DNA of 63,187 nucleotides from assembly GCF_012985275.1 (NCBI RefSeq), contig NZ_JABEKY010000003.1; one strand, given 5' to 3'. Positions 1 to 55,954 of the stretch are shown here, piece by piece. The notes under the pieces are model-generated. The model searched no databases. It saw nothing but the letters and a program-made list of their open reading frames with translations, and was not told the origin of the DNA. The stretch's first letter is position 1. Each line of letters opens with the position of its first letter. A program made the translations under genes and the position numbers. The stretch is from Corallococcus exiguus (GTDB lineage: Bacteria > Myxococcota > Myxococcia > Myxococcales > Myxococcaceae).

Positions 1-2265
1 AAGCCCACCATCGTCGTCAAGGCGGGCGCGGACCTGTCCGACCTGGGCGAGGAGGGCCTGCACCTGCTCCAGAGCCACGACAAGGCGACGCGAGACCTGA
101 TCAAGGCACTGGACGAAAGGGCGCTGCGGCACTGGGACAAGCTGCCCATCGAGAAGCAGTTCGAGCTCTACCGCAAGAAGCTGCTCCTGGAGATCGACGC
201 GCAGCAGTCGCTGATGGCGTCACTGGAGGGCAAACGCGGCGTGTCCATGGATCCGGCGGAGGCCACTCGCCGCATCCGGCAGAGCGAAGCGACGCTGGAG
301 AACCTGCGCCAGCGGATGAAGGAGGTGGACGCCTTCACGCCCCTGGACATGGCGGAGTTCGCCCAGGGCGTGCGCGCGAAGCCGCAGTACCTGAAGGAAC
401 CGCCGCGGCTGTTCACCAAGAAGCCTCCGGCGGCGAAGACGGCGGCGAAGACGAGAGGAGGCAAGAAGAAGGCCCTGGAGCTCACCGTGACGGACACGGA
501 GCCTGTCATCCGGCAGTCAGGCCGGCCCAACGACGTGTGGCCCAACACCGTGCTTCACGCCGACCACCCGGAGGTGGGTCCGTTCACGAAGGCCGGCCCT
601 GCGCCGGATGATCCGTTCATCCAGGGCGCCGAGCGACAGGTGTTCACCGAGGCGCAGCGCGCGCGCACCACGCTGGAGTTGGATCCGGCGGACACGGTGG
701 CTCAGATCGGCCCCGCGTGGCAGGAGGTCAAGTACCGCCCCAAGGAGCTCCGCTACTACAAGCTGGTGGAGGTGACGCGCGCCAGCGGTGAGAAGGAATA
801 CATCGAGCTCATCCTGTCCAAGCGCTCCGGCAACCGCTGGGAGCCGCGCGGCACGCTCACCACCAAGGCCGGCGAGGAGCTGGAGAAGAAGCAGTCCCGG
901 GCGTTCACGGAGGCGCTGCTCGGCGAACACCTGGGACCGACGGAGCGATTCCGGCGGCTGGACTTCAAGCCCAGGGGCGAGGAGCAAGGCAGCGGCATCG
1001 ATGAAATCATCGTCGAGTTCGACCACGCCGCGGATCCGACGAGCGCGAAGCTCCACCTCATCGAGGTTAAGGGCGGCAAGCACGCCCCCCGGCTCAAGGA
1101 CGTCACGGCGGTGGGAGAGAACCTCCGCAAGAACCTGGACGACCTGCAAGCGCAGCTGTCGGACCTGGCCTGGGCCCGGGCGAGAGGCCTGGGACCGGCG
1201 CACCTGGAGGCGCTGACCAAGGCCATCGACGAGTGGCGGATCTCCATCGAGCTGCGCGTGGGGCCCATCACCCCCATGCCTCCGCCGGGCTGGGAGCTCG
1301 TCGACCGCGTCGAACGCATCGCGGACGCGTGGCGCAAGATGTCCCTGGTCCGCGAGGTCATGCCCCACGGTTCGGCCCCTCGCGCGGAGATCGATGCCCT
1401 GATGGTTGTCTTCAGGGACGAGCTGAAGAAGGGCCGCGTCGGGTCCACGCTGAAAGCGCTGGACAAGGTGGAGAAGGCGCTCAAGGGCACGAAGCGCAAG
1501 CCAGGCCTGCTGGCCCAGTACAACATCGATCCAAGCGAGCTGAAGGGGCTCATCCACAGCCTGGATCCGAACGTGAAGCCGGGGGAGATCACCCGGATCA
1601 TCGAACCGTTCGAGACCGCGAAGCGCATTCGCACGATCGGTCCCACCGGCAACGTGCTGGGCTGGGGGGACTTCGACATCACCGTCTCGCGCAGTTGGAG
1701 CAGCCGCCGATTCAAGCGCTTCGAGCTGGCGCAGATGCGGGACCTGCAGGCGGGGCTGGAGGACATCCCGGAGCTGGACCCCTCGACGTTCAGCACGCTG
1801 TCGCTCCGGGACCGGCAGCAGGCCCTCAAGAAGTCGGTGGGCGCGGCCATGGACGCGATGGGCGTCCCCCGGTCGCGCCGTCCACAAGTCCAGTTCCAGA
1901 ACCTGCCGGCTGGGGACTACGGCTGGATGGAATGGGACTTCAACGTCACGCACCAGGGCCGGCTCGCGCCCGTGAGCCGGCGTGGCGTCATCGTCATCAA
2001 CGAGAACCTGGACGTGGGCGACGCGGTGGGCACCGCCGTCCACGAGTCGCGTCACTACTATCAGGCGTATCAGGCCTACCAGTATTCGATTGGCCGACAG
2101 TCGCATCCGTTCTCACGCCGGTGGTGGCGCAACCTGCCTGGCTCCGGCGGCCACTACTACGGGCCGGGGGACCCCCGGTACTTCCGGCAGCCCATTGAAA
2201 CGGACGCGGAGAGCTTCGGCCGCCGCGTCATCGATCTCTTGCCGCCTCGCTGGCCTCCTCCATGA
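1..2265 (+). CDS. 3' portion of a large multidomain toxin-like protein (polymorphic-toxin type) with PD-(D/E)xK-like segment and C-terminal HExxH metallopeptidase-like domain
   Basis: Frame 1 has no stop from nt 1 to the ORF at 214, so the gene is 5'-truncated by the window edge. The protein contains GIDEIIVEFD...HLIEVKGGK (D...E.K, as in restriction-endonuclease-fold nucleases). The C-terminus has TAVHESRHYYQAYQ, an HExxH zinc-peptidase signature. Lys/Arg-rich linkers separate the domains. Confidence 0.55.
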   Translation, partial: KPTIVVKAGADLSDLGEEGLHLLQSHDKATRDLIKALDERALRHWDKLPIEKQFELYRKKLLLEIDAQQSLMASLEGKRGVSMDPAEATRRIRQSEATLENLRQRMKEVDAFTPLDMAEFAQGVRAKPQYLKEPPRLFTKKPPAAKTAAKTRGGKKKALELTVTDTEPVIRQSGRPNDVWPNTVLHADHPEVGPFTKAGPAPDDPFIQGAERQVFTEAQRARTTLELDPADTVAQIGPAWQEVKYRPKELRYYKLVEVTRASGEKEYIELILSKRSGNRWEPRGTLTTKAGEELEKKQSRAFTEALLGEHLGPTERFRRLDFKPRGEEQGSGIDEIIVEFDHAADPTSAKLHLIEVKGGKHAPRLKDVTAVGENLRKNLDDLQAQLSDLAWARARGLGPAHLEALTKAIDEWRISIELRVGPITPMPPPGWELVDRVERIADAWRKMSLVREVMPHGSAPRAEIDALMVVFRDELKKGRVGSTLKALDKVEKALKGTKRKPGLLAQYNIDPSELKGLIHSLDPNVKPGEITRIIEPFETAKRIRTIGPTGNVLGWGDFDITVSRSWSSRRFKRFELAQMRDLQAGLEDIPELDPSTFSTLSLRDRQQALKKSVGAAMDAMGVPRSRRPQVQFQNLPAGDYGWMEWDFNVTHQGRLAPVSRRGVIVINENLDVGDAVGTAVHESRHYYQAYQAYQYSIGRQSHPFSRRWWRNLPGSGGHYYGPGDPRYFRQPIETDAESFGRRVIDLLPPRWPPP

Positions 2266-2277
2266 TGAGGTTCCGAC

Positions 2278-2802
2278 ATGCGCGTCGCTCCTTCCACCTC
2301 CGTCACCTGCTTCGTGTGCGGCTCCACGTTCACCGTCCACAACCGGGTGGACCTGGCCGGAGGCCGACGGACCGTCCTCCAGGAACCGTCGGCCTGTCCC
2401 TTCTGTGATGCGCCCCTGCGGAGCATCCCCAAGCTGGACGTGGGCGTGGCCAAGAGCCTCTTGCTCACCGAGGCCGGCGCGCCGGAGGAGAAGAAGACAT
2501 ACGGAACGGTAGAGCGGTTCCTGGAGCGCTTCACCCGCACGGAGGCGGAGGTGGACACGCTGCTGACGTTGGCGCGCGAACTGGACCTGGAGTCCTGGGA
2601 GTCGGGCAACCTGGCGCGGCTCCAGCGGAGCAAGGATGCGGGGCTGAAGACGGAGACGAAGTTCGTCTCGAAGCTTCGCAAGGAGGCGGAGGACGGTGGC
2701 CTCTTCGAGCGATTGCAGCGCGCCGCGACGACCGTCAAAGATGCGCACCGCGCCCTGTGGAAGCACCACATGGCCCTCTTCCAGCAACGGCAGCAGCCGT
2801 GA
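2278..2802 (+). CDS. zinc-ribbon protein (CxxC...CxxC), candidate immunity/partner protein of the upstream toxin
   Basis: The ORF starts 13 nt after the toxin stop. Its N-terminus is CFVCGSTF...CPFCDAPL, two CxxC pairs. The rest is a charged helical C-terminus. Confidence 0.5.
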   Translation: MRVAPSTSVTCFVCGSTFTVHNRVDLAGGRRTVLQEPSACPFCDAPLRSIPKLDVGVAKSLLLTEAGAPEEKKTYGTVERFLERFTRTEAEVDTLLTLARELDLESWESGNLARLQRSKDAGLKTETKFVSKLRKEAEDGGLFERLQRAATTVKDAHRALWKHHMALFQQRQQP

Positions 2803-2817
2803 ACGAGGCGGAGTGAC

Positions 2818-3588
2818 ATGGCTGGAATCCCCGTGAACGTTCCAGGCACCTGGGCCGGGCTCTTCTCCGCCGAGTGGGGAGAGGACACCCACGCGCGCGA
2901 GCTCATGAAGCGCTTCTCGCCCATCGCGCTGACGAAGGCGAACACGCCCGTTCAATACCTGCGGACGCTGGCGGATGTGCTCGCGTCGCTCATCGTGTTG
3001 ACGGGAGCCGAGGAGGCCCGCGCGGCGGCCACGCCCCTGGTGCCACTGTGTGCGGCTGGAATCGAGCAGGCCGGGGGGCTCTTCGATTCAGTGGATCCGC
3101 CGCGAGTCGCCCTCCAGGTGCTGTCCTTCGTGAACGCGGCGGAGGCGTGCGGGGCCGCGCAGGGGCTGGTGCAGGCGTCGCCCGCGAAGGCGTGGCTGGA
3201 GGCACTGGCGAAGAAGGTGAAGAAGCTGGATGACGTGTTGCTCTATCGCTGCGGGCTGGTGGCGCTCTGTCTGGGGGAGCCGGACCTGGCGGCGAAGCTG
3301 GTGGGAGGTGGGAAGCTTCCGGAGACGCTCACGCCCGGGGAGCGGTTCGGCTTCAACGTCCAGGGCTTCGTGCGCTACCTGGCGACGGCGATGAAGGTCG
3401 GGGCACCGTCTGAAGCGGTGCGGCCCGCGTGGGAGTCCTTCGTGGAGGGCTTTCCGAAAAAGAAGGCCGCGGATCAGGTCTCGTGGAGTGACCTGCTTTG
3501 GGCGGCTCGCGCGTACTTCGTGGGCGTGGAGGGGCGGCCGGTGGCGCGGGTGGGTGAGTCGCTGCATGCGCTCGTGAAACCGGACTGA
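2818..3588 (+). CDS. hypothetical protein (256 aa)
   Basis: Clean ORF with GC3-rich codons and an ATGA overlap with the next gene at 3588. No recognisable motif. Confidence 0.5.
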   Translation: MAGIPVNVPGTWAGLFSAEWGEDTHARELMKRFSPIALTKANTPVQYLRTLADVLASLIVLTGAEEARAAATPLVPLCAAGIEQAGGLFDSVDPPRVALQVLSFVNAAEACGAAQGLVQASPAKAWLEALAKKVKKLDDVLLYRCGLVALCLGEPDLAAKLVGGGKLPETLTPGERFGFNVQGFVRYLATAMKVGAPSEAVRPAWESFVEGFPKKKAADQVSWSDLLWAARAYFVGVEGRPVARVGESLHALVKPD

Positions 3589-5102
3589 TGCGCTCCCCTG
3601 CCCTCGTTGCTCGGCCTGAGGTTTCGTTCGAGGTGATGGACCGGGTGCTGTCCGCGCTGGGCTGGTTCCTCCAGTCCGAAAGCCAGACGCCTCCGCTCAT
3701 CCCAGGGGAGCCGGAGTTCGCGGTGTACGTGAAGCGCGGGACGGACACGACGCTCCATTGCACGTTCAACCCGGTGCTCCGGTTGCGGGTGCTCGAGTTC
3801 TCCGGAGGCAACGCCGTGGGGGAATGGGTGGCCGTGCGCAAGGCGGTGCCGGTGATGGAGGCCCCGGCGCTCGCGGCGCTGCTGGCGTCGTCGGAGACAC
3901 GGGAGGTGCTGCTGGGGTTGATGGCCACGGAGACGCTGCGGGAGCGCTCGTCGATGGAGCGCGTGGCGGCGCTTCGCTTCCATCCGGAGTTCAGCGTGTC
4001 TCGGACAGCGGAGCGCGTGCTGGCGTCGCTGGTGCCGGACGGGACGGAAGAGGCGTTCGCGCGGTTGAAGGCGGAGAAGGAGGCGCATCCGGATCGCTCC
4101 GTGCTGTTCGCGCACCTGCCGGGGGAGGAGCAGCGGCGGCAGGTGTTGCGCTGGCTCATCCATGATCAGGCGGCGTCGAATCCGGACGTCGACGCGGTGC
4201 TGCGCTCCGCACTGGTGGACGCGGACGCGGAGGTGCGGGTGACGGCGGTGATGGCGGCGGCCCGGCTCCAGGCGAGGGAGGTGCTGCCGGCGCTGCGCGA
4301 GGCTCGGATGCCTACGTCGACGCGGGAGGGCGCGGACCCGAGGGACCGGCAGTTCTATTCAAACCTGCGGGACCTGGTGGCCCATGTACTCGCGGGCCGG
4401 CCGCTGCCTCCGGAGGGTTCGCCGAAGCGTGAGCGGATGGCGCCGCTGCTGCGCGCGCTGTCGGGTCCCGCGGAAGTTCGGGACGACCCCACGCTGCTGT
4501 TGCATGCGCTCACGACACCGGTGGATCCGGGGCCGCGTCCGGTGGGACTGCCCGAAGCGGTGGTGGAACGGGAAGGCACGTACCGGCTGCGCCGCTCTGG
4601 GTTGGAGGCGCGCTGGGTGCCTCCGGTGGAGCATTGGCTGGGGACAGGGCCGACGCTGCGGCGGGTGACGTCACCGGGGTTCTTCGTCGCTCGGGTGCCC
4701 GTGAGCCGGGCCGCGGCGGCCTGGGCGATGGCGGCTTCACAGGGGCCGGTGGGGACTGCGGGGCCGGACGCGGAGGAACCGCTGCCGTGCACTCTCGTGG
4801 AGGCAGAGAAGCTGTACTCGGCGCTGTCACGCATTGAAGGCGTGGAGCTGCGGCTGCCTTCCGGTGAGGAATGGGAGATGGCGGCCCGTGGGCCTGATGG
4901 ACGGCTGTTCCCGTGGGGCAATTCGATGCGGGACGACGGGGCTGCTCGGGCTTCGCCCTGGGGCGTGGAGAAGCTCGTGGCTTCGCTTCCGCAGTGGGCG
5001 CGGGCGGGACTGCTGTGCGGGGGACGGGAACAGCCGCTGTGCGCTTCGCGCCGCGAGGTGTTGGCAGGGGTGGGCGCCGTGCGGTGGGTGCTGGCCCCCT
5101 GA
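3588..5102 (+). CDS. HEAT-like repeat / formylglycine-generating-enzyme (FGE-sulfatase, DUF323) domain protein
   Basis: The C-terminus LPSGEEWEMAARGPDGRLFPWGNSMRDDG matches the FGE-sulfatase core (LPTEAEWEYAARG...PWGN). The N-terminus has PBS-lyase/HEAT-like repeats (AEVRVTAVMAAARLQAREVLPALREA). Confidence 0.7.
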   Translation: MRSPALVARPEVSFEVMDRVLSALGWFLQSESQTPPLIPGEPEFAVYVKRGTDTTLHCTFNPVLRLRVLEFSGGNAVGEWVAVRKAVPVMEAPALAALLASSETREVLLGLMATETLRERSSMERVAALRFHPEFSVSRTAERVLASLVPDGTEEAFARLKAEKEAHPDRSVLFAHLPGEEQRRQVLRWLIHDQAASNPDVDAVLRSALVDADAEVRVTAVMAAARLQAREVLPALREARMPTSTREGADPRDRQFYSNLRDLVAHVLAGRPLPPEGSPKRERMAPLLRALSGPAEVRDDPTLLLHALTTPVDPGPRPVGLPEAVVEREGTYRLRRSGLEARWVPPVEHWLGTGPTLRRVTSPGFFVARVPVSRAAAAWAMAASQGPVGTAGPDAEEPLPCTLVEAEKLYSALSRIEGVELRLPSGEEWEMAARGPDGRLFPWGNSMRDDGAARASPWGVEKLVASLPQWARAGLLCGGREQPLCASRREVLAGVGAVRWVLAP

Positions 5103-5312: not shown

Positions 5313-5534
5313 CTACTTCTTCGGCATCCGGATATTGGGGTTCGCCGTGACTCGGGGGGTGCTCTTCGCCTTGAAGCTGCCACCGGCCGCGGCCTTCATC
5401 GTGGGCCCCTTGGCCGCGGTTCCCAGTTGGGCCCTGGCTGTGTCCGTCTTGGGCTGCTGCGATGGCGCGATGGCCTTGTTCATGGCGGGCTTGCGGTCGG
5501 GTGTCTTCCGCGTCTGGGACGTCATTGTCTTCAT
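5313..5534 (-). CDS. small basic Lys/Ala/Pro-rich protein (73 aa), last gene of the contractile-tail operon
   Basis: GGAGG sits 6 nt upstream of the ATG, and the ATG overlaps the stop of the preceding gene as ATGA. Codons are GC3-rich. Sequence MKTMTSQTRKTPDRKPAMNKAIA...AKSTPRVTANPNIRMPKK. Confidence 0.45.
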   Translation of the reverse strand: MKTMTSQTRKTPDRKPAMNKAIAPSQQPKTDTARAQLGTAAKGPTMKAAAGGSFKAKSTPRVTANPNIRMPKK

Positions 5535-6262
5535 GGGTTGCCTCCGGGAATGCGTCCGGCGGGGATGCCTTCCAGCTTGAGCGACACACCGGGCTGCGCT
5601 GGGACTTCCAGATTCACCAGGCCCCCCGCGCCGGTGAGGTGCACGTCCGGGCCAATCTCCAGACGACAGCCCACGGCCGGGCGTCCCGCGTGGTCCTGGA
5701 CCAGCAGCCTGCGCCGGTCGTCGCTCACCACCACCGACGGGCGCCTCAATGCGACCTGCGCCTGCGCGATGAGCACGCAGCGCCGACCCTTCACGCTCGC
5801 TCGGACCTGGGCCCGAATCCGGGCGACTCCGGGTGTCTTGTCTTCGGGAGGTCTCGCGAGGAGCGTGGCACTGTCCGAGGGTGGACCTGGGAGGACCGCG
5901 CCTTCCCAGACCGCTTCGAACCCTTCGTCCAGTCCCACCGCCGCGAGCGACAACGGCACGCGGATGGGCTCCGCGCCCAGCCAGAGTTCGTCCGGCGCGA
6001 CGATGGCCACTTCGGGATCCAGTTGGATGTCCGCGAGCCAGGACCAGCGCTCGGTGAGCAGGTCCGCGAGCCAGCCGGCTTCTTCTGGCGACATGCGTGT
6101 CAGAGCCTGATCCACGTGCGCAGGGTCCGCCAGTCGTTGGAGCGCCGCTGCGCCGTCCTTGAACCGGGCGTTCTCCAACAGGCCGTCGAGCTGGCCCGGA
6201 AGCTGTTTCGCGAGGGAGCGCAGCAGATGGCCCAATCGCTGTCTTGGAGGAAATGCGTTCAT
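5531..6262 (-). CDS. hypothetical protein (243 aa; MNAFPPRQRLGHLL...)
   Basis: Internal ATG of ORF 5531..6418, in an ATGA overlap with the stop of the upstream 403-aa gene. Protein-like composition after the start; the upstream extension is Gly/Arg-rich and is likely not translated. Confidence 0.6.
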   Translation of the reverse strand: MNAFPPRQRLGHLLRSLAKQLPGQLDGLLENARFKDGAAALQRLADPAHVDQALTRMSPEEAGWLADLLTERWSWLADIQLDPEVAIVAPDELWLGAEPIRVPLSLAAVGLDEGFEAVWEGAVLPGPPSDSATLLARPPEDKTPGVARIRAQVRASVKGRRCVLIAQAQVALRRPSVVVSDDRRRLLVQDHAGRPAVGCRLEIGPDVHLTGAGGLVNLEVPAQPGVSLKLEGIPAGRIPGGNP

Positions 6263-7470
6263 CCTCGCCTCCTCCACAGCGAGCGGCCGGTCATCCGGCG
6301 CCGCAGTCGCTGTTCTGCTTGCTGGAGCACTTCGGCGTCCCTCGCCGTGAGGCGGCGGCCGTTCACGAAGAAGGCCCGTGCGTTGGTTTCTGGTTCGTAT
6401 TCCGGTGCTTCTTCCCACACGGGTTCTTCATCCGGTGCTTCGGGGCGTGGCGGTGCTGAGACTCGCGGCGGAGGCAGCAACGTCTTCACTTCGATGTGCA
6501 CCGGGCCTGGTGCTGTGTGCCTCGTGGCCCGTGATGGGGGGAGGATGGATTCGCCCTGCTCCTCCGATTGGGAAGGTCGCGGAGTCCGTGATTCAGGTCG
6601 GTCGTGACGACGTGGCCCGAGTTCCTCCTGGAACGGTGGGGCCTTCCGTGTGTCCGGTGCCGGCGGTCGGTCCAGGGCTCGTGGTATCCGTCTCCTCCGT
6701 GGAGGTGCCCGTGCGGACGTCTCCCCTTGCTCCACTGGGGGAGCGGGTGGTGACGCTTGTGTGGTGGCGCGCGCGACGCGATGGCGGCGTGTTGAGGACT
6801 CCGGGACCCGTGCGCTGATCCGTGGGCGTTCGGCGTTCTTCTCCATGCCGGGTCTCGGCACCCGGCTCCTTCGCGGACTTGGAGCCTTCACGCGTGTTTC
6901 GACGGCGAGAGGGACCTCTGAGGCCGTCTGGCTTTCAGGTTTGGGCCGGTCGCCTCGTTGTGAAGGGACATCCGTGCCCTCGGTGCGAGGACGAAGTGGT
7001 CGTGGCTCCGCGACCTCCGTCTGGAGTTCTGGGGCGTTGGGGACAACGGGGAGCGCGAGCGTCGGAGGCAGTTTCCCGTCTGGACTCCGGGTCACGGGTT
7101 CGACCGGTGGCCGTGGTTCCTGGAGCTGCGCCGACGTGCCGCCAGGTCGGGGAACGCGACGGCGGATGGGTGGGATGGGTTCCGTTGCGGCTGGGACTTC
7201 GACCCGCTCAGGACTCTTGAACACGGGTGGCATCACGTTGTCAGGCTCCGTGAATCCCATGGACCTGGGGCCTGTCGAGGGCGCGGCGGTCTTCACCGCG
7301 CGGCCTGGCTCCCCTTCCCGCCTCCGCGCACCCGGCGTTGGCAGGGACGGTGGCAGCGGCGGATCCACCTTGAAGTCTCCGCGCTCTCCTCGCTCCAGGG
7401 GATGGAGCACCCGGTCCAGTTCCGTCAGCAGCGCGGCCACCACGAAGAGGTCGTCTCTGGCTTCGCTCAT
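6259..7470 (-). CDS. proline-rich, largely disordered protein (403 aa) with short structured N- and C-termini
   Basis: ATG MSEARDDLFVVAALLTELDRVLHP overlaps the stop of the 720-aa gene as ATGA. About 300 aa of P/R/E/S/T-rich low complexity follow. The C-terminus is ARAFFVNGRRLTARDAEVLQQAEQRLRRR. Confidence 0.6.
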   Translation of the reverse strand: MSEARDDLFVVAALLTELDRVLHPLERGERGDFKVDPPLPPSLPTPGARRREGEPGRAVKTAAPSTGPRSMGFTEPDNVMPPVFKSPERVEVPAATEPIPPIRRRVPRPGGTSAQLQEPRPPVEPVTRSPDGKLPPTLALPVVPNAPELQTEVAEPRPLRPRTEGTDVPSQRGDRPKPESQTASEVPLAVETRVKAPSPRRSRVPRPGMEKNAERPRISARVPESSTRRHRVARATTQASPPAPPVEQGETSARAPPRRRRIPRALDRPPAPDTRKAPPFQEELGPRRHDRPESRTPRPSQSEEQGESILPPSRATRHTAPGPVHIEVKTLLPPPRVSAPPRPEAPDEEPVWEEAPEYEPETNARAFFVNGRRLTARDAEVLQQAEQRLRRRMTGRSLWRRRG

Positions 7471-9629
7471 GTCGGAACTCCCAGCCAGGACTTGAGGACC
7501 GTGGTCGCGGCCCTCAGCTCCGGATCCCGCAACACCGTCTTCGTCACACCGCCATCCTGCACCGTGATGTTCGCCGTGCCTGAATCCAGCTCGATGGGGA
7601 GCATGACTCCCGTGGCGAGGCTCGGGCCTCCGAAGCCCTTGAAGTCGCGTCGTAGCGTCACGTCGCGGACCAGCGCCTTGGGCATCTGCAAATCGCGCAG
7701 CGTGATGACCACGACCTCTTCGTCGTCCTCGCAGCACAGCGGCGTGGGCGTCGTTGCCACCTCGTCGTCCGCTCGGGCCGCCGCGCCTGTGCGCACGTCC
7801 ACCGTGTCCACGGTGGCTACGCCCTGCCACCACGTTTCTTCGTCGTCCGCTCCGCGCACGAGCAACAGCTCCCCCGGCCTTGCGACCTGCACCGGTTTGC
7901 TCGAGCCAGATGTGCTCGTCAGCGGGATGCCATCCAGGAACAGCCGCGTCGCTCCGACCTCCACCGGCGGCAGCAACTTGAACGTCTGGCCTGGATACGG
8001 CGCGGCCACCGATGACGGCACCAGACCCAGCGCGCCACCGCCCTGCCCCAGGATCAGGTTCAGCTTCGCGCCCAGTGCGATGATCTCCTGCACCACCCCG
8101 TCCACCTGCGGTCCCGCCGCCGCGTGCCCATCCAGCAACTCCTGCGTGGAGATGGACACCGCGCTTCCACCCACGGGCGACCCGATCCTCACCATTCCGG
8201 CGACTCCAGGCAGCTTCGCATCCGTCGCGATGGACACATTCAGCGGCGCGATGAGCAGCCGCTTCTCGGCCCCTTTCACCTCCCAGCCCAGCACCAGCGC
8301 CAGCGTGGGCCGGTCCCCTCCCACGTTCGCCACGTGCCCCGCCTGCACCTGCCCCAGGTCCACCGTGGGCGTCACAGACAACGCCGTCGCCTGCGTGAGC
8401 GTGTCCTTCACCAGGGCCACCGGTCCCACCAGCGGGATTCCCGTGGACTGTCCCGCGAGCACCCGCGTCAGGCTGTCGCAGAATGGCTTCAGCACGAGCT
8501 TCAGCAGCGGTGCAAGCGCGGCCCGGTTGCGCACGTCGAACCATCGCTGACGGAACACCCAGTGGAAGCGCAGCGACCATTCCAACGTCCGGAGCATCCG
8601 CAGCGACCCGTCCGGATACGCCAGCCGCGACGCCACCGCTTCGTCCATTCCCTTCCCCGCCTCGATGTCCAACGTCATCAGCTCGTTGGACAGCTGTCCG
8701 GGGATGCCGGGTGAATCCGCCCTCCGCAGCGTGGTCTTCAACGACGCCAGCCCCGACACGGACGCAATCACGGTGCGTGGCGGCTGGAGCGCCGTGGCCA
8801 CCGCGCCGTAGTCCGTCGCCGACGCCTGAAGTGAATCCGCCGCGCGTTGGAGCGCATCCGTCAACTCCAGGGCCGCGCCCTGATTCTCCAGCGTGGCCTT
8901 CGCCTGGAGCAGCACGTTCCGGTCCGCCAGGCACTCGCTCTGGCGCGTCGCGGCGCCTGACGCCACGGGGTCGAACGCGCTGGACGCGGACGAGACGGAC
9001 AGCCCATTCAGCACGCTGCTCAGGGACACCGTCTCCGATGTCGTCTTCAACTCCGCCCGCCTCGTGGTGCGCAGGCCCGTCCAGGTCCCCAGCTCCGCGA
9101 CGCCGCTCTCCGCCGCATCCTTCCGCTGGTCCGTGGTGAAGAGCCCCGCGTCGATGGCGTCGTCCACGGTGCCGCTCACCGACAGGGGCCCGAAGTCATA
9201 CGTGGGCACTCGCACCGCCACCTCGCCGCCGTGCTTCTCGTCGCGGAACGCGAACAGCGTCACCGTGCCCGCGAGCAACGCCGCACCCGTGAGCTTCCCG
9301 TCTCCATCCGCTCCGATGGTGCCCACCGCGAACTCCAGCTCCTCCACGCCCGGCAGCCGGCTCTCACTCCCCACGAGCGAACCGACGGACACATTCGGCA
9401 GCCCTTCGCCCCGGGGCGCGGAGGCCAGCGCTGGCGCGAGCGCGATGCCCACCGCGCGACGACGGGCCCGCTCGATGACGTTGAACACGGGCAGGAGCGC
9501 GCACACCGTCTGGACGTGCGGCGCGTCCTGATCCGCCACGCCGTCCATGCGGTCCAGGAACGCCTCCAGCTGCTTCCAGGCCGCCTGCCAGCCATCCAGC
9601 TCCGCGCTCAGGCGTGTCACCGCGCTCAC
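7467..9629 (-). CDS. hypothetical protein (720 aa), candidate payload/accessory of the contractile particle
   Basis: Long ORF with balanced protein-like composition and no recognisable motif. ATGA overlaps at both ends. Confidence 0.7.
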   Translation of the reverse strand: MSAVTRLSAELDGWQAAWKQLEAFLDRMDGVADQDAPHVQTVCALLPVFNVIERARRRAVGIALAPALASAPRGEGLPNVSVGSLVGSESRLPGVEELEFAVGTIGADGDGKLTGAALLAGTVTLFAFRDEKHGGEVAVRVPTYDFGPLSVSGTVDDAIDAGLFTTDQRKDAAESGVAELGTWTGLRTTRRAELKTTSETVSLSSVLNGLSVSSASSAFDPVASGAATRQSECLADRNVLLQAKATLENQGAALELTDALQRAADSLQASATDYGAVATALQPPRTVIASVSGLASLKTTLRRADSPGIPGQLSNELMTLDIEAGKGMDEAVASRLAYPDGSLRMLRTLEWSLRFHWVFRQRWFDVRNRAALAPLLKLVLKPFCDSLTRVLAGQSTGIPLVGPVALVKDTLTQATALSVTPTVDLGQVQAGHVANVGGDRPTLALVLGWEVKGAEKRLLIAPLNVSIATDAKLPGVAGMVRIGSPVGGSAVSISTQELLDGHAAAGPQVDGVVQEIIALGAKLNLILGQGGGALGLVPSSVAAPYPGQTFKLLPPVEVGATRLFLDGIPLTSTSGSSKPVQVARPGELLLVRGADDEETWWQGVATVDTVDVRTGAAARADDEVATTPTPLCCEDDEEVVVITLRDLQMPKALVRDVTLRRDFKGFGGPSLATGVMLPIELDSGTANITVQDGGVTKTVLRDPELRAATTVLKSWLGVPT

Positions 9630-11236
9630 GGGCCAGTTCCCTTCTTTGGCGTGCCGGGTGGCGGCGTGGACGCGTCAGCCGCGGGGGGCTGCGGACCCGG
9701 CGGACGTTCGGACGCGCCCGGACCTCCGAAGCCGATCGCCAGCGAACGCCCTCCCCGGCGCTGGGCGTGCTTCGTGGACGCAATGCCCTCCAGGATCTCC
9801 TTCTGTTCCTCCACGTGCTCCTTCGACTGGTCCAGCACCTCCACCAGCGCGGAGCGGCTCCGCTCGGCGGCGGCCTTCAGTTCATCTGGCGTGCGCCCCA
9901 TCGCCTTCACGAACCTCTGGGGCGCCTTCTCCACCGCGTTCACGAACTTGTCCGCCTGCTTCTGGGCCGTCGTCTTCAGATTGCCCCAGGCGTCCTTCAC
10001 CTCGTCCGTGTTCGCCTCCAGCACCTGCGCCGCCTCGCTCTCCAGCAGGGCCTTCTTCACGTCCTGGAGCGTGAGGTCTCCCGACGCCAGCTCCATCGCG
10101 GACGACAGGCCCAGCAGCTCCCAGAGCATCGCGGCCTTCGCCAGGTTGGGCCCCGCCGCCAGCAGGCAGATGCCTCCCACGTAGCCTCCGGGGGGCCGGC
10201 TCGTCGCCGTGAGGAAGGCCTGCTTCAGCCCCGCCACTCCGCCCGTCGTCGACACCGGCAGCGCGTACATGCCCGCGGACTTCAGCGCGTTCAGCAGGTC
10301 GATGATGGCCTGCACCGCCTGCGCCAGCTTCATCAACACCTGCACCTTGTCCTGCATCGCGGCGGCGAGACTCCGGAGAAGCGTCGCCAGGTTGTCCACC
10401 GACAGGAGCAGCGCCCTCAGCGCCTCCGGGAGGATGAGCAGCTTCTCCAGGTCCGGGAACAGGTCGCGCATGCGCGCGGACTTCCAGTCCGGCTTCACTG
10501 ACCTTCCGCGCGCCCGGCTGCGGCGAGGATCCAACGCGCCCTTGGGGTACTTCTCGAACGCCTTCTTGAACGCGCTGATGTTGAGCAGCTTGCCCAGCAG
10601 GTACAGCGCCTGCCGGAGCGCATCCAGCGACGGTGCCGCCATCACGATGAACACCGCCTGCACCGGCGCGCCGTCCGTCACCGTCGGGCGTGAGTCATCC
10701 CCTGGATCATCGAAGGACGCGACGAACCGCCCCGCCCAGCGCGCGAAGCCGTCCGGCGTCACCGGCGGGCGCTCCAGCGCGAAGCCCGCCTTGAAGTCCT
10801 TGGGGATGTTCGGGATGAAGCCGGTCTCCGCCAGGTTCGTCTCCGTGGGCCCGATGCCCGGCGCGTCCGCGTAGAGGTACGCGCCCGCGTTGAGCAGGTC
10901 GTTGATGATGTCCTTGAGCAGCTCGTAGGCCGCGAGGATGAGCGCCCGGAACGGATCCGGCAGCCCCAGGAGGATGGCCGCCAGCGCCTGGAGCAGCGCC
11001 TGCACGAACTGGAGCACCGCGATGATGATCTGCAGCGGCGGCTTGACGATGCCCACCAACTGCTCCAGCCCCGGCGGCACGCCGATCAGCAGCGGCCGCC
11101 ACGCGGGCCCACTCCCGGCGTCCGTGCCGGTGGCGTCCGTGCCTTCCGCATCCTCCAATGCCTTCGCCAGGTCCTCGCAGCAGGCCTCCAGCGCGCCGTG
11201 GAGTTCAGCGATAGCGGCGTCGTTGAACTCGGCCAC
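9626..11236 (-). CDS. hypothetical protein (536 aa) with hydrophobic helical segments; possible tape-measure-like or membrane-active protein
   Basis: GTG start with GGGAGGA 5 nt upstream. Hydrophobic stretches LQIIIAVLQFVQALLQALAAILLGL and LAQAVQAIIDLLNALKSAG. Charged, coil-like C-terminus followed by a Gly/Pro tail. Confidence 0.65.
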   Translation of the reverse strand: MAEFNDAAIAELHGALEACCEDLAKALEDAEGTDATGTDAGSGPAWRPLLIGVPPGLEQLVGIVKPPLQIIIAVLQFVQALLQALAAILLGLPDPFRALILAAYELLKDIINDLLNAGAYLYADAPGIGPTETNLAETGFIPNIPKDFKAGFALERPPVTPDGFARWAGRFVASFDDPGDDSRPTVTDGAPVQAVFIVMAAPSLDALRQALYLLGKLLNISAFKKAFEKYPKGALDPRRSRARGRSVKPDWKSARMRDLFPDLEKLLILPEALRALLLSVDNLATLLRSLAAAMQDKVQVLMKLAQAVQAIIDLLNALKSAGMYALPVSTTGGVAGLKQAFLTATSRPPGGYVGGICLLAAGPNLAKAAMLWELLGLSSAMELASGDLTLQDVKKALLESEAAQVLEANTDEVKDAWGNLKTTAQKQADKFVNAVEKAPQRFVKAMGRTPDELKAAAERSRSALVEVLDQSKEHVEEQKEILEGIASTKHAQRRGGRSLAIGFGGPGASERPPGPQPPAADASTPPPGTPKKGTGP

Positions 11237-11399
11237 GCGCGTCCTCCCGGGTGCGTTGTTCCAGCTCCATCAGCTTCTCCAGCCGCTCGGCGTCCTGGGC
11301 CACGCCCACCGCCGCCGCCTGGAGCAGCAGGGCCTTCACCTCCTCCAGCCGCTCACGCAGCACCGAGGCTTCCAGTGGCTTCCAGTCGGGAGCCTTCAT
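11205..11399 (-). CDS. small coiled-coil-like protein (64 aa)
   Basis: GC3-rich ORF starting 4 nt after the spike gene stop. Overlaps the start of the 536-aa gene by 32 nt. Weak RBS. Confidence 0.35.
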   Translation of the reverse strand: MKAPDWKPLEASVLRERLEEVKALLLQAAAVGVAQDAERLEKLMELEQRTREDARGRVQRRRYR

Positions 11400-11403: not shown

Positions 11404-12591
11404 TCACCCCACCGGCATGCGCTTGACGAAGCCGAAGTAGGACCAGTCCAGCATCGGCGTCATCGCCGCCCAGACATCCAGCAGTGGCCCGTACGCGGCC
11501 ACCGTCATCGGGTTCACCGCCTTGAGGATCTGCGCCAGCATCGTGAAGTGGATGGCCAGCCCGTCCCCCAACACCATGGGCGAGATGGCGGTGATTCCTC
11601 CCATCTGGCACACGCCCAGCATCGTGTTGATGGACACGTTGCCCGCCAGCGCGTCGATGGAGACAGCGTTGAGCGACGGGCCCGGCATGTCCGGCATCGC
11701 CGCGGCCACCTTCACCGCCTTGCCCGCGGCGAGGTTCACGTTGCCGCCGGACGTGACGCCGTAGCCTCCCACCGCTGTCTCCTGCGACGCGCCGGAGACG
11801 ATGCGCGTGTGGCTGCCCTGGATGCGGTCCTCGCGCGGACCGCCCACGATCTCCTTCACGCCGCTGCCACCCACCGTGCGCGAGTAGCCCGCAACGTCCA
11901 CCTTCTCCGTCAGCGACCCCGTCACGTGCAGCGACACGTCCCCGCCCACGTCGCGGGTGTGACTGCCGTCCACCGTCTCGTCCTGCTTGCCCGCGACCTC
12001 CAGGTGGTCGTCGCCGTCCACCTCCGCGGAGCGGTTGCCCTCGTTCACCGTGCGCTCGTTGCTGATGAGCCGGTCCAGGCCTTCCGCGGACAGGATGACG
12101 CGGTTGCCCTGCCGGTCGTGGATCTCCACACGCGCGGTCTCCGGCCGGTCGTCCAGGACGATGTAGTGGCCCGTGGCGGACTTGAGCATCCGCACGCCCG
12201 GCACCGCGGACTGGGGCGGGTAGTCGTGCTTGGGAATCTCGCTGACGTCCGGAGCCACTCGCGCGGTGGAGTCTGGCTGGCCCAGGTCCGCGAGCGCGGG
12301 CTGCCCCCACCACATGCCGCTCCAGATGGGCTGGGACAGGTCTCCGCCCTCGAACTCCACCCAGACGCCCGCGCCCACGTCCGGCACCACGAAGAGGCCC
12401 TGATCCGGTCCCGCGTACGGCGTGCACGGCATGGCCCAGCCCGTGGCCACATCCCCCATCAGGCGCGGCACCACGCACTGGATGCGCCCCAGGTTGAGCG
12501 GGTCCGAGACGTTCGTCACATAGCCCCGGTACTTGCCGAAGTAGCGGCTCTCCGTGCGTTCGATGAGCTGCTGCAGCAGTTGTTCGATCAT
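11404..12591 (-). CDS. baseplate spike protein, gp5/gpV (Phage_base_V) family
   Basis: N-terminal YFGKYRGYVTNVSDPLNLGRIQCVVPRLMGDVATGWAMP...VPDVGAGVWVEFEGGDLSQPIWSG is the classic gpV/gp5 OB-fold. The C-terminus is Gly-rich with spike-like repeats. Confidence 0.8.
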   Translation of the reverse strand: MIEQLLQQLIERTESRYFGKYRGYVTNVSDPLNLGRIQCVVPRLMGDVATGWAMPCTPYAGPDQGLFVVPDVGAGVWVEFEGGDLSQPIWSGMWWGQPALADLGQPDSTARVAPDVSEIPKHDYPPQSAVPGVRMLKSATGHYIVLDDRPETARVEIHDRQGNRVILSAEGLDRLISNERTVNEGNRSAEVDGDDHLEVAGKQDETVDGSHTRDVGGDVSLHVTGSLTEKVDVAGYSRTVGGSGVKEIVGGPREDRIQGSHTRIVSGASQETAVGGYGVTSGGNVNLAAGKAVKVAAAMPDMPGPSLNAVSIDALAGNVSINTMLGVCQMGGITAISPMVLGDGLAIHFTMLAQILKAVNPMTVAAYGPLLDVWAAMTPMLDWSYFGFVKRMPVG

Positions 12592-12800
12592 CGCGCGCTC
12601 CCCAGGTCGTCGTCCTCGTCGTACTGGCGCACGCCGGAGACGTCCGACAGGTTGATGTAGACGGGTGTGGCGCCATCCGGCCCGGTGAGGTGGACGACGT
12701 CGTCGATGAGCTCCACCACCAGGCCCACGTACACCTGGCCCAACGTGGTGAAGAGGTAGCAGCGCTGCCCCATGCTGGCTTCGAGCAGCTTGCGCATCAC
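12588..12800 (-). CDS. small hypothetical protein (70 aa)
   Basis: ATGA overlap with the spike gene start and with the upstream small gene. Sequence MGQRCYLFTTLGQVYVGLVVELIDD. Confidence 0.5.
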   Translation of the reverse strand: MMRKLLEASMGQRCYLFTTLGQVYVGLVVELIDDVVHLTGPDGATPVYINLSDVSGVRQYDEDDDLGSAR

Positions 12801-13169: not shown

Positions 13170-16100
13170 CTACGGGTTGAGCTCCACCACGGCGTCGGCT
13201 TCCTGGACGTGCACACCGGAGGTGGTCGCGTTGCCGACGGCCGCCACGCGCGAGCCGCCCAGGATGATGACGGAGTGGGCATACGGATCCGGCAGCGGCT
13301 CCGGTGGGAGAGGCCGGATGCCCGCGTCCTGCACCGGTATGGGGCCGGTGGTGCCGCCCGTGTAGAACGAGTCCGCCAGCACCTCGTGCAGCACGGAGAC
13401 ATTGAGGATGCTCTCCTTCACGGTGGACGCCGCCGAGTCGATGCCGAGCACGCTCTTGTCCACCAACTGGAGGGCCTTCTTCGGGTCGCCGTCCGCCGCG
13501 GTCAGCACGGAGCGCACCTGGCCCTGCACGTCCTCGGGATTGTCCGCGTGCATCGCGACGCGGTCCACCAGGTCCCGCAGCGCGCTCGTGGGCGAGTCGT
13601 CCTTCGTCACCGCGATTCCGTAGAGCGTCCGGGCCGCCATGCTCACGTCCATGGTCGCGGGCAGCTTCGAGCGGACGTCCTGCATCGTCGCGTTGTCCAG
13701 CACGCCCTTGGCGGGGACCTCCGCCCGGGCCTGGGGAGGGAGGGGCGTGGGTTGGAAGACGAGCTCCGCGAGCAGCGTGGAGAAGGCATCGCTTGCCACG
13801 TCGCGGCGGCGCTGGAGGCCGCCCAGGAGCAGCTCCTGGTCCAGGGGCACGCCCAGGGTGGAGCCTCCGCCCACGGGAATCTGGAGCGTCAGCCTGTCCG
13901 AGGGCATCAGCCACTGGGGACGCACCACCGGCGGGGGCGGCGTCACCGTCTCCGCTCCCAGCACCACGTTGCCGGTGAAGGTCACCGGCGCTTTCTCCAC
14001 GCGCAGGACGACGACGTTCACCGCGTCCAGGCACTGGCACCGGTTGCCGCTGAAGACGGTGGAGTCCGCGCGGCGCAAGTACACCGCGCCCACGCCGCCC
14101 TCGCTGCGCAGCTCGTTGCCGGACACGGCCGCGGAGATGACCGCGCCGCCGTTGCCCAGCAGGAGCAGCGCAGGGCCTCGCGCGGTGATGTCGTTGCCTT
14201 CCACCTGCACGCCCCGTTTCTCCTTCACCACTGGTTTCGGGAGGATGGGGATGGGCTTGACGAGGAAGTCCACCAGCGCGGGCTGCACCAGCGCCGTCGT
14301 CGCCGTGAGATAGCGCGAGGCCGCCGCGCTGGCGCTCAGGGTGGGTGCGAAGTCCGCGGCCGTCACCGCGAGCGCGCGGTTGAGCACCGGCCCCGTGGCG
14401 AACTTCTGCTTCAACGAACCCAGCTGCACCAGGTCCTCCACGCGGGGCACCGACGCGAGCGTGGCGATGGAGGACGGCGATGAATTGCCGGGGACCGTGC
14501 GGCCATCCGTGCTCGGCTTGGGCACCGGGTCCGTGGCGAGGAAGGGCACGCGCGACAACTTCGTCACCAGGTCCGGAGGCAGCGTGTCGGTGACGACGAG
14601 GACGCCCGCGCCTCCGCCACCACCGCCCGCGTGGCGCACGGTGTTGCCGCGCACCACCGTCTCGCCTCGCCAGTCGATGGCCACCTCGTGGAGCACCGCC
14701 TGCGGCAGCGTGTTGCCGCTCTCCAGGAAGACGTTGCCCTTTACCACCAGCTCGCCGGAGCCCACGAAGGAGGCCACCGCCTGGCCCATGCCGGGCTCGC
14801 CCGCGGTGGGCAGGCCCGCGCACGCGAAGAGGTGGTTGTCGGAGACCACCGTCACGGACAGGTCCGGCCGCAGCCGCAGGCCCGACACCGCGCAGCCCTC
14901 CAGCCGATTGCCATCCACGTCCAGCAGTGAGCCTGGATCCGTGGGCGCCTCCGTCAGCAGGTGCCCCGCCGCGCCCAGGGCGGTGATGCCGGTGACGGTG
15001 TCGCGCACGGTGTTGTCCGCCAGCCGCACGCGGCCCTGCACGCCGGACACGAAGAGGCCGTCCGCTGGCAACGGGAAGGTGTCGAAGACGGGATCCACCA
15101 GGTCGCCGGGGTCCGGGGCCTCGCCGCGCGCCAGCTGCTCCAGCGACTTGCGCAGCATGTCCAGGATGGCGTCCAGCGCCTGCATGCCGGTGACGACGGC
15201 TACGAGCGACGCGGAGACCTTGTCGGAGCGCTGACGCAGGTACTCCTGGAGCCGCGCGACTCGTGATGCGTCGTCCTCGGCGGGGTCCAGGGCCTGCTCC
15301 ACGGCGCGCAGCAGGACCGCGGCGGCGTCCAGCTCGGCCGTCACCGCGCTGGATTTGGCGACGGCCTCCGCGGCGGTGGTCGCGGGCTCGTCCACCAGCA
15401 GGTGCAGGGCCTGGCGCGCGGGCGTGCCGCCGTTACCGCTGGTCAGCGCGGTGATGGCGTCACTCACGCGCTGGAGCGCCAGCGTGCGCAATCTCCCCTG
15501 GATGCCCGCGATGTCCAGCACGCGGTCGTACTGGGAGAGGTAGAGCTGCAACGAGCCGCTGAGCACCGGCCCCGGCGCCATGCCGCGCACCGCCAGCACC
15601 AGCGCGCCCAGGGCGGAGACCCAGCGCTCCAGCGGCTCCGCCTTCACCGGCACGGGCGGTAGGGGCATGGGCAGCACCTCCAGCGTCTGCACACGGATGC
15701 GGTCCAGGAGGCTCCGGGCGATGGCCACCTGCTCCATGCGCTTCTGCGGCTGGGCAATGGCGTCGAGCACCGCCTGGTGCGCCTGCAACGAGAGCGCGGA
15801 CAGCTCCGCGTCGCCGCTCACCAGCTCGCCCAGTTGGCCCACCGCGGTGCCGAAGGAGCGCAGCTGCTTCTCCACCGTGTCGTCGGACTCAGAGACGAGG
15901 CCCGCCGCCTGCCGGTCCAGGTTCGTGGCGTACAGGCCGATGGTGGCGGTGAGCCCCTGTGCCGCGACGCGCGCGCCGTCCTCCGGCGTGACGTCCGACG
16001 AGGGCAGCACGCCGGTGGTGAAGTCCAGCACCTGCTTGAGGGTGGCGCGCATGCGGTCCACCACCGGCTGCATCTGGCCCCCGGTGCGCTCCACGTCGCG

Positions 16101-34018: not shown

Positions 34019-34894
34019 TCAGCTCCAGCCATCCACCAGCGGACGGCCTTCCAGCTCGTTGCGAAGCAGCTCCAGGTAGCGCCACCGCCTGGCCCGAGGC
34101 AGGGCCAGGATGTCCGCCTCCGACCAGTGGTAGTGGAAGGCCAGCACGTGCACCTCCGTCTCCAATCGCGCCGCCCCACCCCGCAGCTCGCGAGCCAGCA
34201 GCGCGAACGGATCCAGCTCCAGCTCCAACCACGCGGAGCACTTCGGGCAGCGCGCCAGCAGCCCCAGGTCCGGAGCGCTCGTGCCGTCCGCCAACGCCAG
34301 CGCCACCGCGTGCCGTGAGCGCGCGGGCAGGGCCAGCCACGCGGAAGGCGTCAGCGTCTGCCCATCCACCACCACCAGCCGCGACCACAGGAGCGCGGAC
34401 CGCTCCGCCCGCGTGCCATGCACTTCCGCGAGCAGCGCGTCGTCCTCGCCCGTGGGCTCGCGCACCTCCGCCCGTCCCTCCGGCAGCGCCACGGTGAGCA
34501 CCTCCGGCGCCGCGTCCACCCGCTCCGGCGAGAGCGCGGAGAGCCGCACGTCCACGTCCGCCATCGCCTCGCATCCGGGCGCGGGGCAGCGCGCCACCAG
34601 CGTCGCCCGGTCCCCGTACATCCGGGCCCGCAGGTGCAGCGCCACGTGGTGCCTGTCTCCGCGCGTGAGGCAGGCCGCCAGCTCCGCGTCCACGCACGCG
34701 TAGTCCCCCAACCGTCCCAGACACGCCGCCAGCCACCCGCTCACCGCGCGCGGGCCGGGACGCTCGCCGGCCTGGGCCAGCGCCCACTCCTCGCGGCCGG
34801 TGAGCGGGCGCAGATCGCCCTGGCGGTGACAGCGGCCGTCCTCGTCGAAGAGGCCGTGCGGCAGCAGCACCGGGATGGGAGGTTCCAGGAGCAC
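34019..34894 (-). CDS. hypothetical Cys4 (CPAPGC...CPKC) protein (291 aa) of the contractile-tail operon
   Basis: Starts 2 nt after the tube-2 stop. Two CxxC-type pairs suggest a zinc ribbon. No other motif. Confidence 0.55.
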   Translation of the reverse strand: MLLEPPIPVLLPHGLFDEDGRCHRQGDLRPLTGREEWALAQAGERPGPRAVSGWLAACLGRLGDYACVDAELAACLTRGDRHHVALHLRARMYGDRATLVARCPAPGCEAMADVDVRLSALSPERVDAAPEVLTVALPEGRAEVREPTGEDDALLAEVHGTRAERSALLWSRLVVVDGQTLTPSAWLALPARSRHAVALALADGTSAPDLGLLARCPKCSAWLELELDPFALLARELRGGAARLETEVHVLAFHYHWSEADILALPRARRWRYLELLRNELEGRPLVDGWS

Positions 34895-55318: not shown

Positions 55319-55368
55319 GGAAGGAGATCTCGTTCAGGAAGGTCGTGGGGAGGGGCTTGCGCCCGGCA

Positions 55369-55929
55369 TCACGTCGTCGGCGGCTGCGGGTTCGTCGCGG
55401 CCAGCTTCGGCAGGCTCATCGTCTTGAACGCGGCCAGCTCCGTCTTCAGCTTCTGGACGGCCTCCGGGTTCTGAGCGAGCTGGCGCACCAGCTGGCGGAA
55501 CTCCTTGCGGTTGTCCAGGTTGCCCTGCAGCTCCAGCAGCAGCTTGCGCAGCGTGAGCAGCGCGTTGATCTTCGGCACCTGACGGGCCACGTCCACCGGG
55601 CTGAAGGACTTCATCGAGTCCAGCTTGAGGCTCACCTGCAGCGGCGCCGGCGCCGAACCATCCACCGGGTCCTTCTTGTCCACGCGGTTGGGCACGTTGA
55701 AGTTCAGCGTCATGCCCATGTTCTGGATGACCTGATTCAGGTTCTTGCCATCCAGATTGCGGATCTCCCGCTGATCCAGGTCCTTCTTGCGGTCGTTGGA
55801 GGTGCCCTTGGAGAAGTCCCCCATCACCAGCAGCCGGAACGGAAGCGCCTTGTCCGCCCGGGTGCCATTCACCTGGGTGCGGTAGGTCAGCGTGATGCGT
55901 GATCTGGGAATTTCGTCGGTGATGGCCAT
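55369..55929 (-). CDS. tssB: type VI secretion sheath small subunit TssB
   Basis: MAITDEIPRSRITLTYRTQVNGTRADKALPFRLLVMGDFS is the TssB/VipA signature. Internal ATG of ORF 55369..56079. Confidence 0.9.
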   Translation of the reverse strand: MAITDEIPRSRITLTYRTQVNGTRADKALPFRLLVMGDFSKGTSNDRKKDLDQREIRNLDGKNLNQVIQNMGMTLNFNVPNRVDKKDPVDGSAPAPLQVSLKLDSMKSFSPVDVARQVPKINALLTLRKLLLELQGNLDNRKEFRQLVRQLAQNPEAVQKLKTELAAFKTMSLPKLAATNPQPPTT

Positions 55930-55954
55930 GAGTACCCCCAAGAACTGAACCGCC

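Follow-up and report, generated by a model that had tools for sequence, protein, structure and literature searches.

What does the group of six genes that closes an operon for a contractile injection system (CIS) in Corallococcus exiguus contribute to the machine? The genes lie in a 63,187-nucleotide stretch of contig NZ_JABEKY010000003.1 (assembly GCF_012985275.1), hereafter the window, directly behind the gene for the spike, and the original prediction saw in them a payload module comparable to the cargo genes of the Afp and PVC systems. Our analysis points elsewhere. On balance, and with little more than even confidence, we read the block as a lineage-specific 'needle module' for the structure or assembly of the central spike complex rather than as swappable cargo. 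The block is made up as follows, with protein lengths in amino acids (aa):

5313-11399, minus strand: the whole block of six genes, at the 3′ end of the 35-kb CIS operon
11205-11399, minus strand: orf64, a small helical protein of 64 aa ending in RRRYR
9626-11236, minus strand: g536, 536 aa, with a GTG start
7467-9629, minus strand: g720, 720 aa, with a GTG start
6259-7470, minus strand: g403, 403 aa
5531-6262, minus strand: g243, 243 aa
5313-5534, minus strand: g73, 73 aa

All six genes, and the overlap of 32 nucleotides (nt) between orf64 and the start of g536, were found where they had been predicted, on the minus strand. Since the window has a GC content of about 70%, at which long open reading frames (ORFs) arise by chance, we tested whether the genes are coding. 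The GC content at third codon positions (GC3) was 0.88–0.92 for g536, g720 and g73, 0.80 for orf64, 0.67 for g403 and 0.78 for g243. Against Corallococcus orthologues the ratio of nonsynonymous to synonymous divergence (dN/dS) was 0.13–0.55 over the six genes, with 0.14–0.35 for orf64, 0.28–0.52 for g403, where dN and dS were both high, 0.15–0.28 for g243 and 0.19–0.55 for g73. Homologues of all six, in the same order, are present in distant loci. As a side observation, the GC3 values of g403 and g243 are unusually low compared to about 0.9 elsewhere in the operon, and synonymous divergence between Corallococcus species is raised in g403, g243 and g73, with dS reaching 1.3–1.6 in g403.

The genes are closely joined to one another and to the spike. 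orf64 starts 4 nt past the stop codon of the spike gene, and g536 has its ribosome-binding site and start codon within the 3′ end of orf64. This overlap (32 or 20 nt), a GGAGG-like site and the G/ATG start are kept in six distant loci. The conserved start and GGAGG-like site inside the 3′ end of orf64 led us to reject a fusion of orf64 and g536 by programmed frameshift, and no slippery sequence was found at the overlap in the same six loci. Of the ATGA couplings predicted for five genes, those from g720 to g403, g403 to g243 and g243 to g73 are present, whereas g536 and g720 are joined by GTGA. Overlaps of 4 nt recur in distant loci, and no terminator-like site was found on the minus strand within the block. 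We conclude that the six block genes are real, translationally coupled, invariant in order and under purifying selection.

We sampled synteny through homologues of g536 and g720 and scored each neighbour as the number of loci having it over the number of loci with enough flanking sequence. In at least 45 loci from genomes and metagenomes the order was invariant wherever the flank was long enough: fibre, two small genes (about 110 and about 70 aa), spike, small ORF, g536, g720, Pro-rich gene and g243. Upstream of g536 we found the spike in 30 of 30 loci, the small ORF (orf64) in 38 of 39, the 70-aa gene (up70) in 26 of 26 and the fibre in all 19; downstream, g720 was present in 33 of 36 and g243 in 18 of 18. 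The three loci without g720 are short contigs from the most divergent group. Content and order of the block remain unchanged down to 29–38% identity. Compared to locus L001, identities were 61% for the spike, 62% for orf64, 59% for g536, 53% for g243, 49% for the fibre and 48% for g720; compared to L016 they were 59%, 45%, 38%, 29%, 38% and 36%, respectively. Block and structural genes, the fibre among the latter, thus diverge at similar rates.

The families are narrow. For g536 we found 85 homologues (median length 537 aa, interquartile range 530–543) and for g243 we found 42, of 228–246 aa. g720 is 95% identical to EJ065_3144 of C. coralloides; its exact sequence is not on record, only 13 word-indexed homologues were retrieved, and a full profile search gave 72 clusters in 1.84 billion representatives, with full-length matches running mostly end to end. 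The named sources of homologues are Corallococcus, Kofleriaceae, Polyangiaceae and Minicystis, together with two metagenome-assembled genomes (MAGs) labelled actinobacterial; the CIS lineage with this block occurs mainly in Myxococcota. Full or partial copies of the module are found in MAGs labelled Actinomycetes and Solirubrobacteraceae (L014, CAYZBB010000017.1, 74% GC; protein P0140), which suggests either transfer beyond Myxococcota or mis-binning. In Minicystis rosea (L015, CP016211, 11452-15574) the g720 homologue is split into proteins of 195 and 538 aa, gene calling gave no Pro-rich gene in the 1.2 kb that precede the g243 homologue and a DDE transposase lies just downstream; this copy of the module may be decaying.

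The g536 protein provides a link to phage tails. In the predicted model a conserved alpha/beta core (approximately residues 45–367) bears two long helical hairpins, of which one is strongly hydrophobic. The core is followed by a C-terminal extension specific to the lineage (about 160 aa), with amphipathic helices, for which we obtained weak apolipoprotein-like matches, and a Pro-rich tail. The long hydrophobic helices noticed at the outset are borne out, with a Kyte–Doolittle value of 2.26 at residues 70–90 and long predicted helices. Scanning IMG/VR, we found distant relatives of the core in viral contigs. A 312-aa ORF of one such contig (L050, 10016-10954) aligns with g536 residues 45–367 with an hhalign probability of 99.9% (E 2.5e-32, 292 columns) and has the motifs SFDDPGD and Y-x-Y-x-D in common with it. 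The order of genes in L050 is a spike-like gene, the g536-like gene, a gp25-like gene (weak; its top matches are AlgoCIS and phage wedge proteins) and a Baseplate J gene (9e-17 to diffocin TRI-2). L050 has its own 850-aa tape measure, which matches 805 phage records; the annotated ones listed are all called 'tape measure'. The order in a second contig, L053, is sheath, an 800-aa protein that bears a lysozyme and stands where a tape measure would, gp5-type spike and g536-like gene (9464-10603). The viral g536-like ORFs gave no match in GenBank phages by tblastn, and neither did g536 and g720.

In both viral clusters the g536-core homologue lies directly downstream of a gp5/V-type spike, as it does here. 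The viral proteins, at 312–379 aa, lack the first 44 residues of g536 and its C-terminal extension (about 160 aa), and their clusters have a canonical tape measure and pass straight on to gp25 and J, with no relatives of g720, g403 or g243; no relatives of g720 and g243 were found in IMG/VR. Judged from these alignments, the g536 core is a spike-adjacent tail gene of phage ancestry rather than a tape measure family, to which the Myxococcota versions have added about 44 N-terminal and about 160 C-terminal residues. The core defines a spike-adjacent gene family common to this CIS lineage and to viral tail clusters. Separately, in three jumbo-phage-like IMG/VR contigs (L051, L054 and L055; 190–424 kb, about 32–34% GC) the motif region of g536 (approximately residues 57–228) occurs inside proteins of 824–1563 aa, one of which has a phage 'hydrolase'-like segment, with neighbours of about 1900–2050 aa.

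g536 had been our early favourite for a tape measure, given its afp14-like position after the fibre, its length (536 aa compared to 535 aa for Afp14), matches to tape-measure PHROGs, the chaperone-like small ORF overlapping it upstream and its tight length distribution. The PHROG matches occurred in 12 of 71 family members (best 2e-7) compared to 1 of 46 for g720 as a control. We downgraded this candidate because the core homologue coexists with canonical tape measures in the viral tail clusters. By hhalign, the probability was 0.3% for g536 against Afp14 and 0.1% against the L050 tape measure, and the weak tape-measure-like signal is probably compositional.

None of the six block proteins has a significant family match in Pfam or NCBIfam, orf64 giving insignificant ones only, and profile searches with g536, g720 (two alignments) and g243 found nothing significant among solved structures. 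The fold of g720 is confidently predicted (pLDDT 92.6) and comprises a 58-residue N-terminal helix, a large helical bundle and several small beta domains; it has no PDB match, and neither the g720 nor the g536 model matched an enzyme-like fold. g403 is indeed rich in proline (18% Pro, 15% Arg; low-complexity and Pro/Arg/Ala-rich), and among nine aligned orthologues its ends are the only conserved parts: at the N-terminus a helix and a PPxLPP motif, at the C-terminus a basic helix. In 19 loci the g720 and g243 genes are 303–508 codons apart. g243 is well conserved, and we read it as probably two-part, with a helical N-terminal and a strand-rich C-terminal half. It was tried as an Afp16-type cap and found no support, as it has no Pvc16_N match and hhalign of its alignment against Afp16 gave a probability of 0.4%. 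g73 is, as predicted, small and basic (net charge +14; Lys/Ala/Thr/Pro-rich). It is the least widely conserved member of the block: its profile detects Corallococcus/Myxococcaceae loci only, L001 has a 69-aa gene of similar composition in the same place, and L014 and L016 pass from g243 straight to a giant gene, with no g73 in the interval.

How do these properties compare with those of cargo? Cargo genes of Afp and PVC systems vary between related loci. The block does lie at the end of the structural operon, but its content and order are invariant and its dN is that of structural genes. We found no toxin, enzymatic or DUF4157 'effector core' domain in the six proteins or in 34 g243-family and 46 g720-family members, which have no Pfam domain of any kind, and no DUF4123, DUF1795, DUF2169 or PAAR-type domain in the block or the two small genes upstream of the spike. 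No effector domain lies behind the disordered region of g403, which is therefore not a cargo leader. In every test that we ran, no block protein qualified as tape measure, cap, recognisable cargo toxin or type VI secretion system (T6SS) adaptor. The original prediction was therefore right in finding no structural or catalytic motif and in expecting new CIS-linked families, with no Pfam, NCBIfam or solved-structure match; loading or adaptor factors among them are possible. The payload module it proposed does not agree with an invariant, spike-coupled block that evolves at the rate of structural genes, with a g536-core homologue inside a viral baseplate block (spike, g536-like gene, gp25, J) or with a neighbouring cassette that is more cargo-like. 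The remote-homology checks it called for (hhalign, profile and fold comparisons) matched the block proteins to no known component, and strong homology to known structural parts did not appear, the weak tape-measure-like signal of g536 being the only one of this kind.

The neighbouring cassette runs towards the block from the other strand and is not part of it:

1-5102, plus strand: convergent cassette of four genes
1-2265, plus strand: large ORF open at the edge of the window, with a C-terminal HESRH (HExxH) motif in a DUF6782-like metallopeptidase domain
2278-2802, plus strand: zinc-ribbon (CxxC) protein
2818-3588, plus strand: 256-aa protein
3588-5102, plus strand: c504, an FGE-sulfatase/HEAT protein

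Compared to L004, dN is 0.40–0.45 for the first three cassette genes and 0.02–0.12 for the spike, g536, g720, g243 and the FGE-like gene. One Corallococcus clade lacks the cassette. Elsewhere, giant Annexin-type proteins stand where the cassette would be, following the g243 homologue in L014 and L016 and convergent in L001, and an FGE-sulfatase-like gene is repeatedly linked to block loci. Being hypervariable among closely related Corallococcus strains, optionally present and equipped with HExxH, the cassette behaves like cargo, unlike the block. It looks like a polymorphic toxin/immunity unit and is the better cargo candidate.

The operon that the block completes has the following features next to the block:

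40271-5313, minus strand: the whole CIS operon, ending with the block
13170-20777, minus strand: tail fibre, 2535 aa, with an N-terminal DUF6519 (eBAP5) anchor by Pfam and a beta-helix
12797-13171, minus strand: up125, a small protein between the fibre gene and up70, without a Pfam match
12588-12800, minus strand: up70, a small conserved protein just 5′ of the spike, present in 26 of 26 loci
11404-12591, minus strand: spike of gp5/P2 gpV type (OB domain and beta-helix), 395 aa, matching Phage_base_V (6.1e-24) and Gp5_trimer_C (2.2e-6)

It starts with a 652-aa protein, sheath, two gp19-type tubes and a 291-aa protein, and continues with CIS_tube, a LysM protein, a gpD-type hub, gp25, Baseplate_J, a TIGR02243 baseplate protein and a Tail_P2_I+Kelch protein before the 2535-aa fibre, two small genes, the spike and the block. 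The Pfam and NCBIfam matches are Phage_sheath_1, Phage_T4_gp19 (twice), CIS_tube, LysM, Phage_GPD, GPW_gp25, Baseplate_J, TIGR02243 and Tail_P2_I. Sheath, tube, tube initiator, hub, gp25 and J-type baseplate, the parts that mark an extracellular CIS (eCIS), are therefore all present without head genes; none lie in the flanks either, which hold a histidine kinase, a T6SS and the toxin-like cassette. We take the 395-aa ORF as the spike on account of its GC3 of 0.93 and its Phage_base_V match and reject an overlapping 426-aa ORF. The spike is 59–62% identical in distant loci and is coupled by ATGA to up70. up70 has a dN/dS of 0.08–0.21 against most Corallococcus orthologues and 0.84 against L007, and gives weak MM0924/DUF6897 matches; the position of up125 is held by a gene of 101–116 aa in distant loci. 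DUF6519 covers fibre residues 7–53 (7.2e-9) and Tail_P2_I is found on the preceding gene (4.8e-7). DUF6519 is eBAP5, the baseplate-anchor domain of the Tail_P2_I-type eCIS subtype (PMC12923769), and this arrangement, a DUF6519 fibre downstream of a Tail_P2_I gene, is the one seen here.

An AAA+ ATPase and Pvc16_N have been described as invariable marks of eCIS regions (PMC10020575). Among the ORFs tested between 5.3 and 40.3 kb, there was no Pfam match to an AAA+ ATPase of Afp15/Pvc15 type and no match to CIS_TMP or an NCBIfam CIS tape measure, and no operon ORF tested matched the Pvc16_N (PF14065/DUF4255) terminator. Two defining features of Afp/PVC-type eCISs, ATPase and Pvc16_N terminator, are accordingly not found in the operon. 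We note that the eCIS marker domains CIS_tube and DUF6519 are present although ATPase, Pvc16_N terminator and tape measure go unrecognised. The 652-aa protein at the head of the operon (38313-40271, minus strand) and the 291-aa protein encoded between the tube and tube-initiator genes (34019-34894, minus strand) have no match in Pfam, NCBIfam or, by single-sequence search, PDB; the latter has two Cys pairs, CPAPGC and CPKC, suggesting a zinc ribbon. A few kb away, at 46273-63187, lies a canonical T6SS cluster with DUF4280 (PAAR-like), TssF, gp25/TssE-like, VipB/TssC, TssK (VasE), DotU/TssL and IcmF/TssM, so that two different contractile systems stand side by side in one genome.

Set against known systems, the locus resembles several and coincides with none. 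Like Afp and PVC it encodes a headless contractile tail-like machine, and the block occupies the position of the afp14–16 region (tape measure, AAA+ ATPase, Pvc16_N cap, then toxins), after the fibre at the 3′ end of the operon, with a first large protein of almost the same length as Afp14. However, Afp has its spike fused to the upstream hub gene, whereas here a separate spike sits in the block module, ATPase and any similarity to Afp14 or Afp16 are missing, and the block is conserved in contrast to the variable afp17/18-type cargo. R-type pyocins, diffocins and P2 share with it a gpD-like hub split from a gpV-like spike (a split also found in Mu), gp25, J and Tail_P2_I, and the lack of an AAA+ ATPase. 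Those tails have a canonical tape measure, chaperones, gpU-type terminators and a spike gene before W, whereas here the spike is displaced to the end of the operon together with five or six genes of unrecognised families, and an eCIS eBAP5 fibre is present. By its gene content the system is like a P2/pyocin-type tail that carries an eCIS-type fibre. T6SS vgrG islands (VgrG, adaptor or chaperone, effector, immunity) likewise have genes right after the spike and suggest the idea of spike-borne delivery without an ATPase, but the block has no adaptor or PAAR domains, no variability and no immunity-like gene, and fibres and a P2-type baseplate are present. Finally, the phage-tail-like particle of Streptomyces lividans has Sle1/Sle2, a tape-measure-related effector with a membrane hairpin and a DUF4157 partner (PMC13277306). 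Compared by description, these and the block share a helical protein with a predicted membrane hairpin, a small partner beside the CIS and weak tape-measure-like similarity; the block differs in having no DUF4157 partner and in the alpha/beta core of g536 with its viral tail relatives.

We therefore return to the needle module. The block, the spike and the two small upstream genes would form one translationally coupled module whose products are made in fixed proportions, and the block products would build, chaperone or complete the central complex of spike, hub and inner tube. g536 would bind at the spike through its conserved core, while its hydrophobic hairpin and the added amphipathic tail might act at a membrane as the spike is driven out, with orf64 as a putative partner or chaperone. 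g720, the Pro-rich g403 and g243 may provide what the operon otherwise lacks, for example length control, capping or assembly, around the P2-type baseplate of the lineage (gpD hub, gp25, J and Tail_P2_I, and a fibre with the eBAP5 anchor). The variable HExxH cassette would be the more likely cargo. Several points weigh against this reading. Neither by sequence nor by fold does any block protein match a known structural part of a CIS or phage, so that a structural role is read from context and not from recognition. Structures were predicted for g536 and g720 only, and the g536 model is of moderate confidence. Loci without g536 and g720 could not have been found, because the sampling ran through their homologues. 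The place right after a spike gene is also where T6SS effectors and adaptors are encoded, and g536 could itself be toxic given the membrane-like hydrophobic hairpin of its model. Moreover, the Corallococcus clade that lacks the cassette shows no other cargo next to the operon.

No fold or sequence match decides between the needle module and its rivals. In its strongest form the payload idea becomes a conserved spike-borne effector or translocon set, with the g536 hairpin as pore-former or translocator and the other products as chaperones or adaptors, as in T6SS vgrG islands or with Sle1/Sle2. We consider this unlikely. It would suit a block that is coupled to the spike and immediately 3′ of it in an operon without a loading ATPase, the strongly hydrophobic hairpin (2.26) and the apolipoprotein-like C-terminal helices of g536, the description of tape-measure-like CIS effectors with membrane hairpins and small partners (PMC13277306), and the one Corallococcus clade without another cargo candidate. 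Yet some 45 loci show no variability, gene swapping or obvious immunity gene, no toxin, DUF4157, PAAR, DUF4123, DUF1795 or DUF2169 domain was found, and a core that belongs to a viral baseplate gene block argues for a tail part rather than a toxin. The loading of cargo could instead fall to an adaptor machine in which g720, g403 and g243 would tether the giant HExxH/Annexin-type protein to the spike without a Pvc15-type ATPase. The absence of an ATPase, the repeated linkage of the FGE-sulfatase-like gene and the place of the giant protein, next after the g243 homologue and co-directional with it in L014 and L016 and convergent in L001 and the window, point this way. We nevertheless think this quite improbable, as the block is intact in the Corallococcus clade without the cassette and no known adaptor domains were found.

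A sharper sub-case of the needle module is that the block replaces Afp14–16, with g403 or the g536 extension as ruler, g243 and/or g720 as cap or terminator and orf64 as chaperone of the ruler. Fixed-length contractile tails normally need a tape measure and a terminator, and the operon has neither in recognisable form. The post-fibre position, as for afp14–16 in pADAP, the near-identical lengths of g536 and Afp14 (536 and 535 aa), the excess of tape-measure PHROG matches over the g720 control (12 of 71 compared to 1 of 46) and the two conserved ends of g403 around a spacer of 303–508 residues are consistent with such a replacement. It is doubtful all the same: hhalign was negative for g536 with Afp14 and for g243 with Afp16, there is no CIS_TMP or Pvc16_N match, the g536 core coexists with a dissimilar canonical tape measure in L050, we know of no precedent for a proline-rich ruler, and the 652-aa and 291-aa proteins of the operon could fill these roles. 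A particular version, which we hold to be a long shot, has g403 as a non-helical, intrinsically extended ruler whose end helices are anchored at the spike and at the cap by g720 and g243. If true, this would be a hitherto unknown way for a CIS to control its length and be capped.

Work on CISs, including their re-engineering for protein delivery, rests on the parts list of Afp and PVC, with its tape measure, ATPase and cap. The lineage described here has sheath, tube, baseplate and fibre genes, none of these three standard parts in recognisable form and, instead, five or six invariant proteins of unknown families. What is new is these unrecognised protein families, including g720 with its confidently predicted fold that has no PDB match. 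The search for a toxin moves from the block to the variable HExxH cassette, and the roles of the block proteins would reveal by what means length is set and the tube closed when the usual parts are missing and, possibly, how cargo is carried without a loading ATPase.

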